In this document: positions 18,843-25,623 of the stretch, piece by piece | Numbering within the stretch: position 1 is the first letter of the stretch | How the letters are laid out: each line of letters opens with the position of its first letter | Source: Pseudoalteromonas tetraodonis | GTDB taxonomy: Bacteria > Pseudomonadota > Gammaproteobacteria > Enterobacterales > Alteromonadaceae | Assembly: GCF_002310835.1 (NCBI RefSeq) | Contig: NZ_CP011041.1 | Location: 1,380,001 to 1,412,000, forward strand | Direction: 5' to 3' | Length of the DNA: 32,000 nucleotides | Notes under the pieces: generated by a model | Seen by the model: only the letters and a program-made list of their open reading frames with translations | Database searches by the model: none | Told to the model about the DNA's origin: nothing | Translations under genes and position numbers: made by a program

Positions 18843-19859
18843 ATGGCAATAGATGTTAAAAAATTAGTCGTACACTATGTAGACAAAAAAGATGACGATA
18901 CTCAAATTCACCTTCGTAACGACGAAATGACAATCAATGATAAAGTGGCTGTATTCATTGAGCAATTACACCATGCCTATAATGGCAAGCCAGGTAAAGG
19001 GTTTTGTGCTTTTAGTGGCGAAAAAAACAGTATTGTAGCCTCTACTATGCAAAGCTATCGCAATAATGAGCTTGGCTTTTGGCACATGACCGAGCAGGCA
19101 TCAACGGTGCTAAAAGAAGAGTTAGATAAATACGCCTTTAACGAAACCGGCTATTTAGTATTTTGTCACTATCAGTACGTGGCGACTGATTATATGTTGA
19201 TTGCCATGATCAATATTAAAGAGCATTACTCAATGACCTCTGAGCTTGATTTAGCCGCATCGCGTCATTTAGATATTTCGCGTATGCAATTGGCTGCTCG
19301 TATTGATTTAACCGCATGGGATACCCAGGCAGAAGACAATCGTTATATTTCATTTATTAAAGGTCGTGCAGGGCGTAAAGTCGCTGACTTTTTCTTAGAC
19401 TTTTTAGGTTGCGAAGAGGGCATTGATCCTAAGCAGCAAAGTCAAGTGATGCTCAATGCGGTAGAAGACTACTTATCAGAGCAAGAGTTTGATAAGTCTG
19501 AAAAAGACGAGTTACGTAAGCAAGTATTTGATTACTGTAACGACTGTGTTACCACGGGTGAAGAAGCTAATGTGAGTGAACTTTCAGCAACGCTTACCAA
19601 AGGTGACGACAACCCGTTTGAAAGTTTTTGTAAAGAGCAAAGCTATGACTTAGAAGAGTCATTCCCGGTTGACAAAAAAACGGTAACCAGCATGGTTAAA
19701 TTTTCAGGCTTAGGCGGTGGAGTCAGTATCAGTTTTGAGCGTAAGCATTTAGGCGAGCGTGTAACTTATAATGAAGCCACTGATACGTTAGTGATCAAGG
19801 GCATTCCACCAAACCTAAAAGATCAACTACAGCGTTTTATGGAACAACAGCAAGATTAA
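18843..19859 (+). CDS. yejK: Nucleoid-associated protein YejK (NdpA)
   Basis: 338 aa, collinear with E. coli YejK. Shared motifs are ARIDLTAWDT...RYISFIKGRAGRKVADFFLDFLG and TDTLVIKGIPPNLKDQLQR. Confidence 0.92.
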   Translation: MAIDVKKLVVHYVDKKDDDTQIHLRNDEMTINDKVAVFIEQLHHAYNGKPGKGFCAFSGEKNSIVASTMQSYRNNELGFWHMTEQASTVLKEELDKYAFNETGYLVFCHYQYVATDYMLIAMINIKEHYSMTSELDLAASRHLDISRMQLAARIDLTAWDTQAEDNRYISFIKGRAGRKVADFFLDFLGCEEGIDPKQQSQVMLNAVEDYLSEQEFDKSEKDELRKQVFDYCNDCVTTGEEANVSELSATLTKGDDNPFESFCKEQSYDLEESFPVDKKTVTSMVKFSGLGGGVSISFERKHLGERVTYNEATDTLVIKGIPPNLKDQLQRFMEQQQD

Positions 19860-19866
19860 ACTCACA

Positions 19867-20049
19867 GCGGGCTGCGAGCTACGGGTTTCGGGATCAGGCT
19901 CGTAATCCGATCCCCGCAGCCCGTTAACTTTCGATTGTAACTTTACCCTCTAAAAGCGCAGTGTCTCTTAGCCCTCTTTGTGAATAATTTTCTTAAAGAT
20001 CTTATTGCACTGAGAGAAGATAATGAGGAGTAAATGAGAAGATAAAACA
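19867..20049. repeat. Intergenic direct repeat, copy A (GC-rich hairpin module plus an AT-rich tail)
   Basis: A 183-nt unit, roughly 95% identical by eye to 20289-20464. Differences are a 7-nt indel, a short substituted patch in the hairpin and 3 point differences. It opens with a nested hairpin, CGGGCTGCG...GGGATC...GATCCC-CGCAGCCCG. Confidence 0.85.
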
Positions 20050-20110
20050 AGGGTTAGGGATTAGGCCCGTAGCACGCTCCCCACAACCCGTTAACTTTAC
20101 CTCTATCTTT
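20050..20110. repeat. Degenerate third copy of the GC-rich hairpin module
   Basis: GGGTTAGGGATTAGGCCCGTAGC...CCCGTTAACTTTACCTCT contains an inverted piece and then a direct piece of the copy A/B hairpin arm (CCCGTTAACTTTACCCTCT). Confidence 0.45.
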
Positions 20111-20288
20111 ATTTTTGAACCACGGAGTACACCGAGGCGCTACGCGCTGCACCGAGAATACAAAACAAAAACCAATACCCTGTACTTTTTAATTTCATAA
20201 CATTTGTATTTAATCATTTCCTCTGTTTTCTCCTATCCTCTGTGGTAAATAAATCACTAAAATCTTATTGTCATGCTTGCGGCAATTT

Positions 20289-20464
20289 GCGGGCTACGGG
20301 TTTCGGGATCAGGCTCGTAACCCTAACCCCGCAGCCCGTTAACTTTCGATTGTAACTTTACCCTCTAAAAGCGCAGCGTCTCTTAGCCCTCTTTGTGAAT
20401 AATTTTCTTAAAGATCTAATTGCACTGAGAGAAGAGAATGAGGAGTAAATGAGAAGATAAAACA
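20289..20464. repeat. Intergenic direct repeat, copy B
   Basis: A 176-nt unit matching 19867-20049 (see copy A). Confidence 0.85.
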
Positions 20465-20529
20465 GGTATTAGCAGATAACTTGTAGACATAGAGCTTGAT
20501 CTCGTGTGAAGCGAAGCTTCGAATGTTTT

Positions 20530-20585
20530 AACCTTTAACCTTTAACCTTTAACCTTTAACCTTTAACCTTTAACCTTTAACCTTC
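20530..20585. repeat. Heptanucleotide microsatellite (AACCTTT) x7 perfect plus 1 imperfect
   Basis: Read directly: AACCTTT repeated head-to-tail from 20530 to 20578, then AACCTTC. Confidence 0.95.
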
Positions 20586-20653
20586 AGTCTTTAATCCTTA
20601 CCCGATCCTCGCAGCCCGAACCCCGTTTGCCAGATACATAAATGCCAGGCATT

Positions 20654-20690
20654 AAAAAACCGCGTTAAAATCAATTAACGCGGCTTTTTT
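20654..20690. terminator. Bidirectional rho-independent terminator (rne 3' end)
   Basis: AAAAAA-CCGCGTTAA / AATCAA / TTAACGCGG-CTTTTTT: a 9-bp stem with an A-tract on one side and a T-tract on the other. It lies 24 nt beyond the stop at 20714-20716. Confidence 0.85.
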
Positions 20691-20713
20691 ATGCTCTTAG
20701 CTAAACTCAGTGC

Positions 20714-21502
20714 TTATTCAGCACTCAGCGTTTTAGTCATTGCTGAGCTTGCACGACCGGCAGGTTTTACCGAGCCAGGGCGAAGGCCGCTGTCAGGGAT
20801 TAACTCACGTTTGTCATGTGCCATTGCAACCGATGTATGCTTGGTTTCGCTATCGGCTACAGGCGCAGGCTGTGCCATTGGCGCACTTGCATGTCCTGCT
20901 GTAATCACTGTTTTAGCGTTTACATTAGCTGAACTCGTTTGCGAAACTGCCTTAGGTTTATTTTCAACCACAGGTGCTTCTTTCGCTTCTACAGGTGTTT
21001 CAGTAGCGCTAACCGGTGCTGTTTCAGCTTCAACAGCAACTTCTTCAGCTGGTACTGATTCTTCAGCTTTTACTGGTTCTTCAGCTTTTACTGGTTCTTC
21101 AGCTTTTACTGGTTCTTCAGTTTTCACTGGTTCTTCAGCTTTCACTGGTTCTTCAGCTTTCACTGGTTCTTCAGCTTTCACTGGTTCTTCAGTTTGCACT
21201 GGTTCTTCAGCTTTTACTGGTTCTTCAGCTTTCACTGGTTCTTCAGTTTTTACTGGTTCTTCAGTTTTTACTGGTTCTTCAGTTTTTACTGGTTCTTCAG
21301 CTTTTACTGGTTCTTCAGCTTTTACAGGCTCTTCAACTTTCGCTAATTCTTCTTCAACAATGTTTTGTTCAACTGCATCAGAGGCATCAACGGCCGTTTT
21401 ATGTGCTTTTGCTTTTAGCTCTGCTTCGTATTCAGCAGCGGCTTGATCCGCAACTGGAATGAAAGCAGGCGCTTCATCAGACTTCTCTTGCGTGCCTTCA
21501 CC
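20714..21502 (-). CDS. rne: Continuation of the rne reading frame: RNase E C-terminal scaffold region (262 codons) downstream of an in-frame TAA
   Basis: It is in the same frame as 21503..23893 and contains no stop. I translated it by hand: GEGTQEKSDEAPAFIPVADQAAAEYEAELKAKAHKTAVDASDAVEQNIVEEELAKV(EEPVKA)n...GHASAPMAQPAPV...TKTLSAE*. The tail resembles the E. coli RNase E C-terminal end (NHATAPMTRAPAP...). The track only shows the 173-aa part from GTG 21235. Confidence 0.7.
   Translation of the reverse strand, partial: GEGTQEKSDEAPAFIPVADQAAAEYEAELKAKAHKTAVDASDAVEQNIVEEELAKVEEPVKAEEPVKAEEPVKTEEPVKTEEPVKTEEPVKAEEPVKAEEPVQTEEPVKAEEPVKAEEPVKAEEPVKTEEPVKAEEPVKAEEPVKAEESVPAEEVAVEAETAPVSATETPVEAKEAPVVENKPKAVSQTSSANVNAKTVITAGHASAPMAQPAPVADSETKHTSVAMAHDKRELIPDSGLRPGSVKPAGRASSAMTKTLSAE
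21047..21334 (-). repeat. Coding tandem repeat, 18 bp x 16 (EEPVKA/EEPVKT/EEPVQT ... EESVPA)
   Basis: On the minus strand the unit is GAAGAACCAGTAAAAGCT, repeated head-to-tail with a few A/G and A/C substitutions. It creates stop-free shadow ORFs on the + strand. Confidence 0.95.
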
Positions 21503-23893
21503 TTAAGGACGACGACGACGTTGGCCAGATGCACGAAGATGACGCGGTGAACGACGTGAGCGAGTACGTGTTTGCTCTTGCTCTTCATCTTGTGTTGCCA
21601 CGTTATCGTTTGCATCAACAACAGCCTCAGCTTGTTCTTTAGCAGGTGCAGGTGCTTTTTCATCAGATACCGGCGCTTGCTTTTCAACAACAGGAGCTTG
21701 CTCTTTCACTTGTGGCTTGTCTTCTTTAACCACTGGTTGCTCAACAGCTTGCTCAGTTGTTTGAACTTGCTCTGTGCTTTCGTCTTGTACGCGAACTTTT
21801 TTACGTAAATTACGACGTTGACGACGTACCTTAGGCTTTTGCTCTTTTGGCTCAGCATTCTTATCAGATTTAACTGCAGTATCCGTATTTTGAGTTGCCT
21901 CTGCTTTTACTTGCGTTTTATCTTCAGTTTTATGCTCAGGACGTTTACGCGTATTTGAATTACGACGGCGCTTATTGCGATTCTCATTCTTTTCTTGCGT
22001 ATCATTTACAGGCGCCGACTCATTTTTAGCTTCAGCGTCTGCAGTACGTTCGTTACGCGGTTTATTACGAGGGTTATTATTACGACGACGTTGGTTGTTA
22101 TTACGACGACGATTATCATTACCACGATTATTACTAGGGCGATCTTGCGATTGCTTTTCAGTCTGTTTTTCTGATTTTTGCTCAGTATCAGACCCAAATA
22201 ACGACTTAATCCATTTACCTAATGCGGCAAATAAACCAATTTCAGCTTTTGCTTCTACTACCGGCGCAGCTTTTGCTGCCGCTTGTGGCGCAGGCGTTGA
22301 AGGCATAACGACGCCTTTAAGCTTCGGCTCTTCACGAACAGGTGCCGCTGGCGATTTAGACATTTCAAATGCTTCAGGCTCAGGCGCAACAACTTGCTCG
22401 TAGCTTACAGTTTCAAGTGTTTCGTCTTTACGTAAACGCATTACTTCGTAGTGAGGTGTTTCCATGTGTTGATTAGGAATAATCACTACATCACATTTAT
22501 GATGCTTTTCAATACGGTGAACGCTACGACGTTGCTCATTCAATAAATAAGCGGCAACAGCAACAGGCACTTGAGCATTAACTTGAGCGGTGTTGTCTTT
22601 AATCGCTTCTTCTTCAATTAAACGAAGAATAGACAATGCGATTGATTCGTTAGAACGAATAGTACCTTGACCACTACAACGTGGACAAACACCTTGGCTT
22701 GCTTCACCTAGTGAAGGGCGAAGGCGTTGGCGCGACATTTCAAGTAAGCCAAAGCGAGAAATTTTACCAATTTGTACGCGCGCACGATCTGGGCGAGCAG
22801 CATCTTTTAAGCGGTTTTCTACTTCACGTTGATGACGTGGAGGTGTCATATCAATAAAGTCGATAACAATTAAGCCACCTAAATCACGTAAACGAAGTTG
22901 ACGTGCAATTTCATCTGCCGCTTCTAGGTTGGTGTTAAGCGCTGTTTCTTCAATATCGCCGCCTTTTGTTGCTTTAGACGAGTTGATATCGATAGAGGTA
23001 AGTGCTTCAGTAGGGTCAATTACAATAGAACCACCTGAAGGTAAGCGCACTTCACGTTGAAACGCAGACTCAATTTGGCTTTCAATTTGGTAATGTGTAA
23101 ATAACGGTGTATCACCTTGATAAAGCTTAACGCGACTCATGAAATCAGGACGAAAACGCTCTATGTGCGCTTTAGCTTCTTCAAAAACACGAGGCTTATC
23201 AATTAAAATTTCGCCAATGTCACGACGTAAATAATCGCGAATTGCACGGAAAATCACGTTGCTTTCTTGGTGAATTAAAAATGGTGCTTTTGCACTGTCT
23301 GCCGCTTGTTGAATGGCTTCCCAGTGGACTAATAATGCTTTTAAATCGTAGTTTAGTTCTTCAAACGACTTACCAACACCTGCGGTACGTACAATTAAGC
23401 CCATACCTTTTGGAAGTTCTAAGCGGCTTAGCGACTCTTTAAGTTCAGTTCGCTCATCACCTTCGATACGGCGAGAAATACCGCCAGCGCGAGGGTTGTT
23501 AGGCATAAGCACTAAATAACTACCTGCCACGCTGATAAAGGTAGTCAGTGCTGCCCCTTTTTGGCCGCGCTCTTCTTTATCAACTTGTACAATAACTTCT
23601 TGACCTTCTTTGATCACGTCGCGAATATTCGGACGACCATGAAAGGTGTAACCTTGCGGGAAGTAAGTACGGGCAATTTCTTTTAAAGGAAGGAAACCAT
23701 GACGATCAGCACCGTAATCAACAAATGCTGCTTCTAAAGATGGTTCAATACGTGTGATTTTACCTTTGTAAATATTGGCTTTTTTCTGTTCGTGACCTGG
23801 GCTTTCTATATCTAAATCATATAGGCGCTGGCCGTCAACCAGTGCTACGCGCATTTCTTCTTGCTGCGTTGCATTGATTAGCATACGTTTCAT
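21503..23893 (-). CDS. rne: Ribonuclease E: catalytic domain, membrane-targeting helix, Arg-rich RNA-binding segments and an RhlB-site motif; ends at an in-frame TAA
   Basis: 796 aa. The N-terminus [30 protein letters not shown] is almost identical to E. coli Rne. It has the Zn-link CPRCSGQG, the amphipathic [20 protein letters not shown] and [12 protein letters not shown]-type AR segments. It ends ...[17 protein letters not shown], compared with E. coli SRSPRHLRVSGQRRRRY... Confidence 0.95.
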
Positions 23894-24300
23894 AATGTTA
23901 CTCTACTAGTTTGTGTCGCTGACATGACGATGTTTTCTCGCCTGTTCAGGTGTTCCTATTTTTAGAATGTGCAGCCTCACGACTGGGTCTTTAACGGAAC
24001 GGCTCTGTATTTAGTAAGCAGTATTTTAAATGCCGGCAAACAATAGGGTGTAATCACGCTATTAAATTCTAAGGGGATACAAACGTGTCGGCTTTTTAGC
24101 TCAATACTCGTTTTATCCAGAAGTTGGCCTGTCATAACAATCTTATTAAATGCATTCATATTAGGTGCGTAGGGCTCTTTAGCTTCAAACCATAGTTTCG
24201 TTTTTAAAACTACCGTTATCGTTTTTATGAGCAAAAATCGCTACCGATGTTAATGAACGCTTATTTATTAGATTTTTTTAGTTCTAAATAAGCTGCTGTA
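23894..24300 (-). promoter_or_regulatory. Probable long structured rne 5' leader (autoregulatory UTR expected from E. coli)
   Basis: A 770-bp non-coding gap separates divergent rne and rluC. E. coli rne has a long RNase E-responsive leader of several hundred nt. A 9-bp inverted repeat GCTTATTTA...TAAATAAGC (24259-24293) and other hairpins are present. The boundaries and the promoter are not determined. Confidence 0.35.
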
Positions 24301-24663
24301 CGGTACTACAATATTTGAGCGAATTCTGAACGGCGTTTTTTTACGCCGCCACTATCAGACAAATTATCTGTTCATTGCTTTTATTATCACTTTAAAAATC
24401 AATTCATGTTCAAACTTAAGCAGCAATATATTACGCGCATTGCCGTTAGTTGTGCGCACGTGTTAACTGGGTATGTATAAAAGCTTTGGAAAACTTAACT
24501 CGGATCTGTATGATCGGTTACCCAGAATGTGCATCACGAATGTTTTAATGTGTTAAAAAGCACCGTTGTTATTTGCAAATACTAAATATTTGCGCTGCTG
24601 ATTATCCCACTATTATAACTGTGTTAGCAACTAAATTATTTTACTTAAATCAGTGATTAGGCA

Positions 24664-25623
24664 ATGTCAGAAAAAACCGGCTTACAAGTAACTTTTGTCA
24701 CTATCAACGAAGACCACCTAGGTCAGCGTATTGATAACTTTCTTATTACCCATTTAAAAGGGGTGCCTAAAAGCGCAGTTTACAAAATTCTTCGTAAAGG
24801 TGAGGTGCGTGTAAACAAAAAACGCATTAAACCTGTGTATAAATTGCAGCTAGACGACGTTATTCGTATACCACCAATCAGAGTGTCAGAGCGTGAAGAG
24901 TTTGTCCCTTCAAAACTCGATAAAGTAACTCGCCTTGAAGACGATATTCTATTTGAAGACAAATACCTGATGGTTATTAACAAGCCATCGGGTATGGCTG
25001 TGCATGGCGGCAGTGGCCTAAGCTATGGCCTTATTGAAGCATTACGTGTTTTACGCCCAGAAGAGCGCAGCCTTGAGCTTGTGCATCGTTTAGACCGTGA
25101 TACATCAGGTTGTTTACTCATTGCTAAGCGCCGCTCTGTGCTGACTGCCTTGCATGAGCAATTGCGTGAAAAAACCATGGAAAAAAATTATTGGGCACTT
25201 GTTGAGGGTCAATGGGACTCTAAAACAAAAAATGTGACTGAAGGCTTGCGCAAAAACACCCTAAAATCGGGTGAGCGCGTAGTACGTGTTGATAATACCG
25301 AGGGCAAACCGTCGCATACCCGCTTTAAAGTGCTTGAGCGTTTTAACGATTGCTCATTAGTACAAGCATCCCCTGTAACCGGTCGTACTCACCAAATTCG
25401 TGTGCATACTCAGTGTCAAGGTCATGCTATTGCCTGTGATGACAAATATGGCGATCAAGGGTTTGACGAGTCAATGCGTAAACGTGGTTTAAACCGCTTA
25501 TTTTTACACGCCCATGATTTAAGTTTTTACCACCCTAAAAACGAAACCACCATGCGAGTAGAAGCACCGCTTGATAAAGCACTATCAAGCTGTTTAGTTA
25601 AACTTAGAGCAGCAAAAGCGTGA
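24664..25623 (+). CDS. rluC: 23S rRNA pseudouridine synthase RluC
   Basis: 319 aa (similar in length to E. coli RluC, from memory). It has an S4 domain (RIDNFLITHLKGVPKSAVYKILRKGEVRVNKKR), the catalytic motif HRLDRDTSGCLLIAK and GRTHQIRVH. It is divergent from rne, as in E. coli. Confidence 0.93.
   Translation: MSEKTGLQVTFVTINEDHLGQRIDNFLITHLKGVPKSAVYKILRKGEVRVNKKRIKPVYKLQLDDVIRIPPIRVSEREEFVPSKLDKVTRLEDDILFEDKYLMVINKPSGMAVHGGSGLSYGLIEALRVLRPEERSLELVHRLDRDTSGCLLIAKRRSVLTALHEQLREKTMEKNYWALVEGQWDSKTKNVTEGLRKNTLKSGERVVRVDNTEGKPSHTRFKVLERFNDCSLVQASPVTGRTHQIRVHTQCQGHAIACDDKYGDQGFDESMRKRGLNRLFLHAHDLSFYHPKNETTMRVEAPLDKALSSCLVKLRAAKA

Follow-up and report, generated by a model that had tools for sequence, protein, structure and literature searches.

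A probable nonsense mutation in rne truncates the RNase E scaffold of the Pseudoalteromonas tetraodonis type strain GFC

The gene rne, encoding RNase E, lies on the minus strand of a 32,000-nucleotide stretch of the Pseudoalteromonas tetraodonis genome (assembly GCF_002310835.1, contig NZ_CP011041.1, positions 1,380,001 to 1,412,000; hereafter the window, to which all coordinates refer), and the strain sequenced is the type strain of the species, GFC. Our analysis indicated that rne of GFC carries a real, recent and strain-specific nonsense mutation, in which the codon for Glu797 was changed from GAA to TAA. We give this reading a probability of about 0.85.

A stop codon inside the rne frame and the same codon in relatives

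Translation of the minus strand over positions 20600-23950 gave a protein that starts with MKRMLIN at 23893 and is interrupted by a TAA codon, after which the same frame remains open as far as a second TAA, ending in TKTLSAE. The elements of this frame are as follows.

23893-21503, minus strand: present rne open reading frame (ORF), 796 codons followed by the TAA stop (from the translation and the ORF table)
21505-21503, minus strand: premature stop TAA, codon 797 of 1059 (direct reading of the sequence)
21502-20714, minus strand: orphaned 3' part of rne, in frame, 262 sense codons closed by the original TAA stop at 20716-20714

At the junction, the coding strand has the sequence cgt cgt cct TAA ggt gaa ggc. 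Read through, the frame amounts to 796 + 1 + 262 = 1059 codons, with exactly one internal stop. A first-pass annotation made from the sequence alone had described RNase E as split by a single in-frame TAA; this was confirmed by the minus-strand translation, and the coordinates, the frame arithmetic and the TAA-G context given there were all correct on retranslation. The further stop that it thought might have been misread between 21502 and 20717 does not exist. The 262-codon open stretch is not a product of chance, for residue by residue it has its homologue in the C-terminal part of the full-length RNase E of related genomes. According to the ORF table, the first start codon of the downstream piece in this frame is GTG at 21235, which opens a frame of 173 amino acids.

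The TAA allele was found repeatedly in sequence data from GFC. The exact 796-residue protein is recorded under ATD02888.1, GEN39687.1 and GLQ02477.1 as 'ribonuclease E [Pseudoalteromonas tetraodonis GFC]', and an identical product is encoded on 11 contigs, including one of 3.4 Mb, one from GCA_007991235.1 (BJXY01000039.1) and others from raw runs assembled in Logan. We read four of the contigs, one from GCA_007991235.1 and three from the Logan assemblies of SRR5690248, SRR5690249 and SRR5690253. All four were 100% identical to the window over 5-10 kb and carry the TAA, which was seen by direct reading in two of them. The Logan contigs end about 200 nt past the stop, within an 18-bp tandem repeat.

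Congeners have a sense codon at this position. A genome scan with conserved junction motifs gave at least 37 Pseudoalteromonas loci; those listed are all from other species and include neither the representative of P. tetraodonis itself nor its nearest named relatives. The motif SPRHLR..GQRRRR was present in 21 of them. The codon at the stop position of these 21 rne genes was GAA or GAG (Glu) in 18 cases and GAT (Asp) in three; in the closest species among the matches listed, CCT GAA GGT GAA stands opposite CCT TAA GGT GAA in GFC. The rne ORF was unbroken, with 1050-1206 codons, at 20 of the 21 congener loci, and the last (L005) runs off the end of its contig.

Closer relatives were found in metagenomes. 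A scan with the pattern CGTCGTCGTCCTNAAGGTGAAGGCAC, in which the first base of codon 797 was left free, matched four contigs (L044-L047) showing 96-99% nucleotide identity to the window across the locus, and codon 797 was GAA in each of them (CCT GAA GGT GAA GGC). Complete, uninterrupted rne genes of 1059, 1059 and 1065 codons were present in L045, L046 and L047, respectively; the gene in L044 is cut at its 5' end and is open across the codon-797 site. The position corresponding to 21503-21505 is thus occupied by GAA, GAG or GAT in related rne genes. The first-pass annotation had considered that orthologues might all terminate here; a sense codon was present in every orthologue read. With a sense codon and a continuous gene in the relatives, the truncation allele is the derived state.

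The protein alignment with the near-identical contigs contained 28 variable columns, and a single one was private to GFC: the stop. Apart from this stop, each residue at which RNase E of GFC departs from that of one of L045-L047 is shared with at least one other of them. The orphaned tail, collinear with the C-terminal part of their RNase E, has no residue private to GFC. Nine DNA sites within 3.6 kb were GFC-private, six of them in rne; these six comprised five synonymous changes and a G-to-T substitution on the coding strand at window position 21505, which converts GAA (Glu797) to TAA. As the G-to-T at 21505 is the only non-synonymous private difference in rne, the lesion is derived, strain-specific and recent. 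Judged from these alignments, GAA is the ancestral codon at position 797 and the orphaned tail is not yet decaying.

Protein-level searches added little to this comparison. Repeat-free queries, made through a word index that evidently misses the full-length Pseudoalteromonas proteins, returned only short contig-end fragments and retrieved no full-length gene from a named isolate of the same species. Exact look-ups in the protein collection gave no match to the Glu-containing 1059-residue protein, to the Met-start 173-residue tail or to the three full-length metagenome proteins. A junction-spanning query that included the EEPVK repeats of the tail was swamped by low-complexity matches and was useful only for P0001, P0002, P0005 and P0009; the contigs holding rne of P0053 and P0054 end before the junction, so these two were not informative.

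Segments of RNase E on either side of the stop

The catalytic half expected of an RNase E orthologue lies entirely upstream of the stop. Pfam matched, all at full length, an S1 domain (PF00575, residues 36-117), the RNase_E_G family (PF10150, residues 121-390; E=4e-101, model positions 1-269 of 270) and a thioredoxin-like domain (PF20833, residues 402-486; model positions 1-85 of 86). The microdomains of the non-catalytic half were placed by aligning the protein pairwise with E. coli Rne, for which PMC4435900 gives the coordinates. They are listed here together with the segments encoded beyond the stop, in the order in which they follow one another in the protein.

22193-22240, minus strand: membrane-targeting sequence (MTS), residues 552-567, aligned with the E. 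coli MTS (565-582); retained
22046-22141, minus strand: Arg/Asn-rich, AR1-like RNA-binding segment, residues 585-616, aligned with E. coli AR1 (604-644); retained
21788-21826, minus strand: helicase (RhlB) site motif HBS, residues 690-702, aligned with E. coli 719-731, RRKQRQLNQKVRY; retained
21509-21565, minus strand: arginine-rich segment AR2, residues 777-795, aligned with E. coli AR2 (796-814); retained
21407-21472, minus strand: genus-conserved motif APAFIPVADQAAAEYEAELKAK, residues 808-829 of the ancestral protein; lost from the product
21041-21340, minus strand: 18-bp tandem repeat encoding EEPVK(A/T), 16.7 copies with 93% matches (Tandem Repeats Finder); lost from the product
20717-20896, minus strand: conserved C-terminal segment GHASAPMAQPAPV...AMAHDKRELIPDSGLRPGSVKPAGRASSAMTKTLSAE, putative equivalent of PBS3; lost from the product

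The order MTS, AR1, HBS, AR2 is that of gammaproteobacterial RNase E, and HBS is conserved between E. coli and P. haloplanktis (PMC4435900). The stop falls one codon (Pro796) beyond AR2. The first-pass annotation had assigned the motif at the stop to the RhlB-binding region; this was wrong, as SPRHLR(V/A)SGQRRRR corresponds to AR2 (E. coli 796-814) and the RhlB site to E. coli 719-731. Its outline of the product, which would keep the catalytic domain, the membrane anchor and the Arg-rich segments and lack the distal docking region, was right according to the alignment. The locus thus combines a premature stop within the non-catalytic half with an intact catalytic half, the combination by which a scaffold-truncation allele is recognised.

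The lost parts include the genus-invariant motif AFIPVADQAAAEYEAELKAK. Within APAFIPVADQAAAEYEAELKAK, the core VADQAAAEYE was unchanged in all 17 full-length Pseudoalteromonas sequences and AELKAK was found in 15 of the 17; near the end of APAFIPVADQAAAEYEAELKAK, A is replaced by E and AK by RT in two species. This motif aligns to the position of the E. coli enolase-binding site, and RNase E of P. haloplanktis is described in PMC4435900 as associating with RhlB and PNPase and not with enolase.

The EEPVK repeat that follows is polymorphic among the near-identical contigs: L047 has one additional EEPVKA unit, and Ala and Thr are exchanged in several units. Short-read assemblies break at the repeat, and for this reason many database entries of the genus named 'RNase E, partial' end at it. 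Two long ORFs run antisense over the repeat region, at 20691-21446 (plus strand, 251 amino acids) and 21016-21462 (plus strand, 148 amino acids). Most probably they arise only from the absence of stops in the repeat and do not represent genes.

The C-terminal segment of about 60 residues (GHASAPMAQP...AMAHDKRELIPDSGLRPGSVKPAGRASSAMTKTLSAE) is highly conserved across the genus, P. haloplanktis included. PMC4435900 reports that PBS3, at the C-terminal end of P. haloplanktis RNase E, was shown experimentally to be the PNPase-binding site. By this correspondence, the putative PNPase-binding site of GFC is encoded in the DNA, outside the ORF, and is absent from the translated product. PF12111, the Pfam model of the enterobacterial PBS, had no match on the tail, in agreement with the stated sequence difference of the PNPase site from lineage to lineage. 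The sole Pfam match on the tail, 'Cementoin', was rejected as a low-complexity artefact of the repeat, and a PDB sequence search across the junction gave no meaningful match.

Alternative readings of the in-frame TAA

The first-pass annotation had left four readings side by side, namely an error in the sequence, a real nonsense allele, read-through of the stop and separate expression of the tail by re-initiation; the nonsense allele stood, the error was contradicted by the 11 contigs, and the two others found no support. A sequencing, assembly or polishing error in place of a true GAA codon would account for a single-base difference from every relative read, and it would also leave the downstream frame perfectly preserved. 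However, such an error is very unlikely, given that three GenBank protein records and 11 contigs have the same 796-residue product and that the TAA stands in all four contigs read. The three Logan raw-run assemblies owe nothing to the assembly or polishing of the submitters, and the base concerned was substituted outside any homopolymer. Read-through, whether programmed or due to a suppressor tRNA, would give useful full-length RNase E and hence two isoforms. The intact downstream frame, free of private residue changes, fits the continued selection that this reading implies, but it fits a very recent mutation equally well; moreover, the stop is absent from all near-identical contigs and from all congeners read, which leaves nothing programmed or conserved. 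In gammaproteobacteria, TAA followed by G, as here, terminates translation strongly. No tRNA gene was found in the 32-kb window, to which the search was confined. As for a stimulatory RNA element, no Rfam family came up to its gathering score anywhere in the window, and permissive scanning of 19800-24700 produced a single chance-level match, no dedicated structure search having been made. On this evidence read-through appears quite improbable. Re-initiation, for example at GTG 21235, would release a free PNPase-binding peptide as a separate polypeptide, and gene callers do report the 173-residue ORF from this codon. Nevertheless, there is no in-frame ATG, GTG or TTG over 90 codons (270 nt) past the stop, and the later GTGs are Val codons of the EEPVK repeat with no Shine-Dalgarno-like sequence. 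Their anti-Shine-Dalgarno pairing reaches only -1 to -2.3 kcal/mol, a measure that alone is not decisive, the true rne start being weak in it as well. The minus strand within the tail has no promoter-like site, and the arrangement is not conserved in any relative read, so that re-initiation seems highly improbable. Hardly any weight can be given to the idea that in this lineage RNase E and its tail are ordinarily the products of two separate genes: the search for a conserved split arrangement found no support, and the complete rne genes of L045-L047, the open frame across the site in L044 and the unbroken ORFs at 20 of the 21 congener loci refute it.

A further alternative accepts the mutation and proposes that it was selected, in the pufferfish-associated niche or during laboratory propagation, in that uncoupling PNPase and the partner of the AFIPVADQAAAEYEAELKAK motif was advantageous. 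An adaptive origin of this kind is possible but unsupported, and we regard it as unlikely; if the truncation had been selected, the type strain would be a natural degradosome-rewiring mutant. A variant in which low-level read-through or a separate tail gives two functional products is less likely than selection. Some points weigh against the favoured reading, a real and recent nonsense mutation confined to GFC. All data sets carrying the TAA are 100% identical and apparently come from one clone, and the independence of SRR5690248-53 from the GenBank assemblies is assumed. The 796-residue product is predicted on sequence-level evidence, and the assignment of the GFC C-terminal segment as a PNPase docking site, although likely, is carried over from P. 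haloplanktis through a second-hand account.

Locus context, predicted consequences and known truncations

The surroundings of the gene are those of an RNase E orthologue: a divergent rluC upstream, then maf/yceF, yceD, rpmF and plsX, in the same order as in the E. coli annotation. The divergent rne-rluC spacer (23894-24663) is 770 nt in length, and part of it is probably a long 5' untranslated region of rne; Rfam gave no match in it at gathering or permissive thresholds. On the other side, the next gene (18843-19859, plus strand; PF04245, NA37) is convergent to rne, and a polar effect on other genes is therefore not expected. Between the two lies one element relevant to transcription of the orphaned part.

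20649-20694, both strands: terminator-like bidirectional hairpin with 20-nt arms and T runs on both strands, 20 nt past the original rne stop

From the premature stop as far as the hairpin, the minus strand has no terminator-like site. The hairpin could terminate both convergent genes, rne and the PF04245 gene. An Rfam match to Leu_leader overlies the hairpin and was dismissed as chance (22.8 bits vs a gathering score of 50, E=0.2). In the 850-nt spacer that follows rne, a 185-nt direct repeat is present at 19873-20057 and 20288-20472, its two copies 95% identical, with partial copies at 20051-20098 and 20595-20618; it has the appearance of an intergenic repeat element. Between the rne terminator and the PF04245 gene, (TTTAACC) x 8.3 forms a perfect tandem array at 20527-20584, continued by weaker copies as far as about 20603. 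BLAST comparison with L044 and L047 indicated that the spacer is differently arranged in these near-identical metagenome contigs.

With the nonsense mutation, translation would end one codon after AR2 and yield a 796-residue RNase E that should be catalytically complete and membrane-bound and should still bind RhlB and RNA. The last 263 residues, with the invariant motif, the EEPVK repeats and the conserved C-terminal segment, would be missing, and the truncated enzyme would recruit neither PNPase nor the partner of the AFIPVADQAAAEYEAELKAK motif. Transcription would probably still run to the original terminator, leaving the 789 nt past the stop as a 3' untranslated part of the transcript. The degradosome would be expected to lose its coupling to PNPase, much as after engineered C-terminal truncation of RNase E in E. 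coli. We infer the loss of PNPase binding and its physiological effect by analogy; the mutation itself may have come about in nature or during culture. E. coli lacking the scaffold domain is viable, with altered RNA decay and weaker small-RNA-mediated regulation (PMC3991390), and a culturable strain with a truncation allele is for that reason unsurprising.

By the same analogy, GFC, the reference strain of its species, very probably has an RNase E unable to dock PNPase. Its RNA-decay, cold-adaptation and small-RNA physiology may not represent the species, which is a caveat for the choice of strain, and the 796-residue 'ribonuclease E' of the databases corresponds to a truncated allele, which is a caveat for annotation. 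The allele is also a ready-made natural truncation of the distal scaffold only, and could help to assign a function to the AFIPVADQAAAEYEAELKAK motif.

Truncations of this kind have been described in E. coli, where rne131-type alleles and scaffold deletions likewise end in the disordered non-catalytic half, leave the catalytic half intact and remove docking sites. The rne131 allele ends near residue 584; the GFC allele cuts later, keeping the membrane anchor, AR1, the RhlB site and AR2, so that only the distal part is removed. The E. coli truncation alleles were engineered or selected, whereas that of GFC occurs in a natural isolate, a type strain, of another genus. Within Pseudoalteromonas, the degradosome of P. 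haloplanktis comprises RNase E, RhlB and PNPase without enolase (Ait-Bara and Carpousis 2010, as relayed by PMC4435900), and in its RNase E the motifs follow one another in the order seen here. Conservation between P. haloplanktis ATCC 14393 (L019) and ancestral P. tetraodonis extends to the RhlB site, AR2, the AFIPVADQAAAEYEAELKAK motif and the C-terminal segment; unlike in P. haloplanktis, the putative C-terminal PNPase site of GFC lies past a stop codon. Collectively, this is a known kind of lesion, an RNase E scaffold truncation, in a new instance in a type strain, and not a new mechanism.

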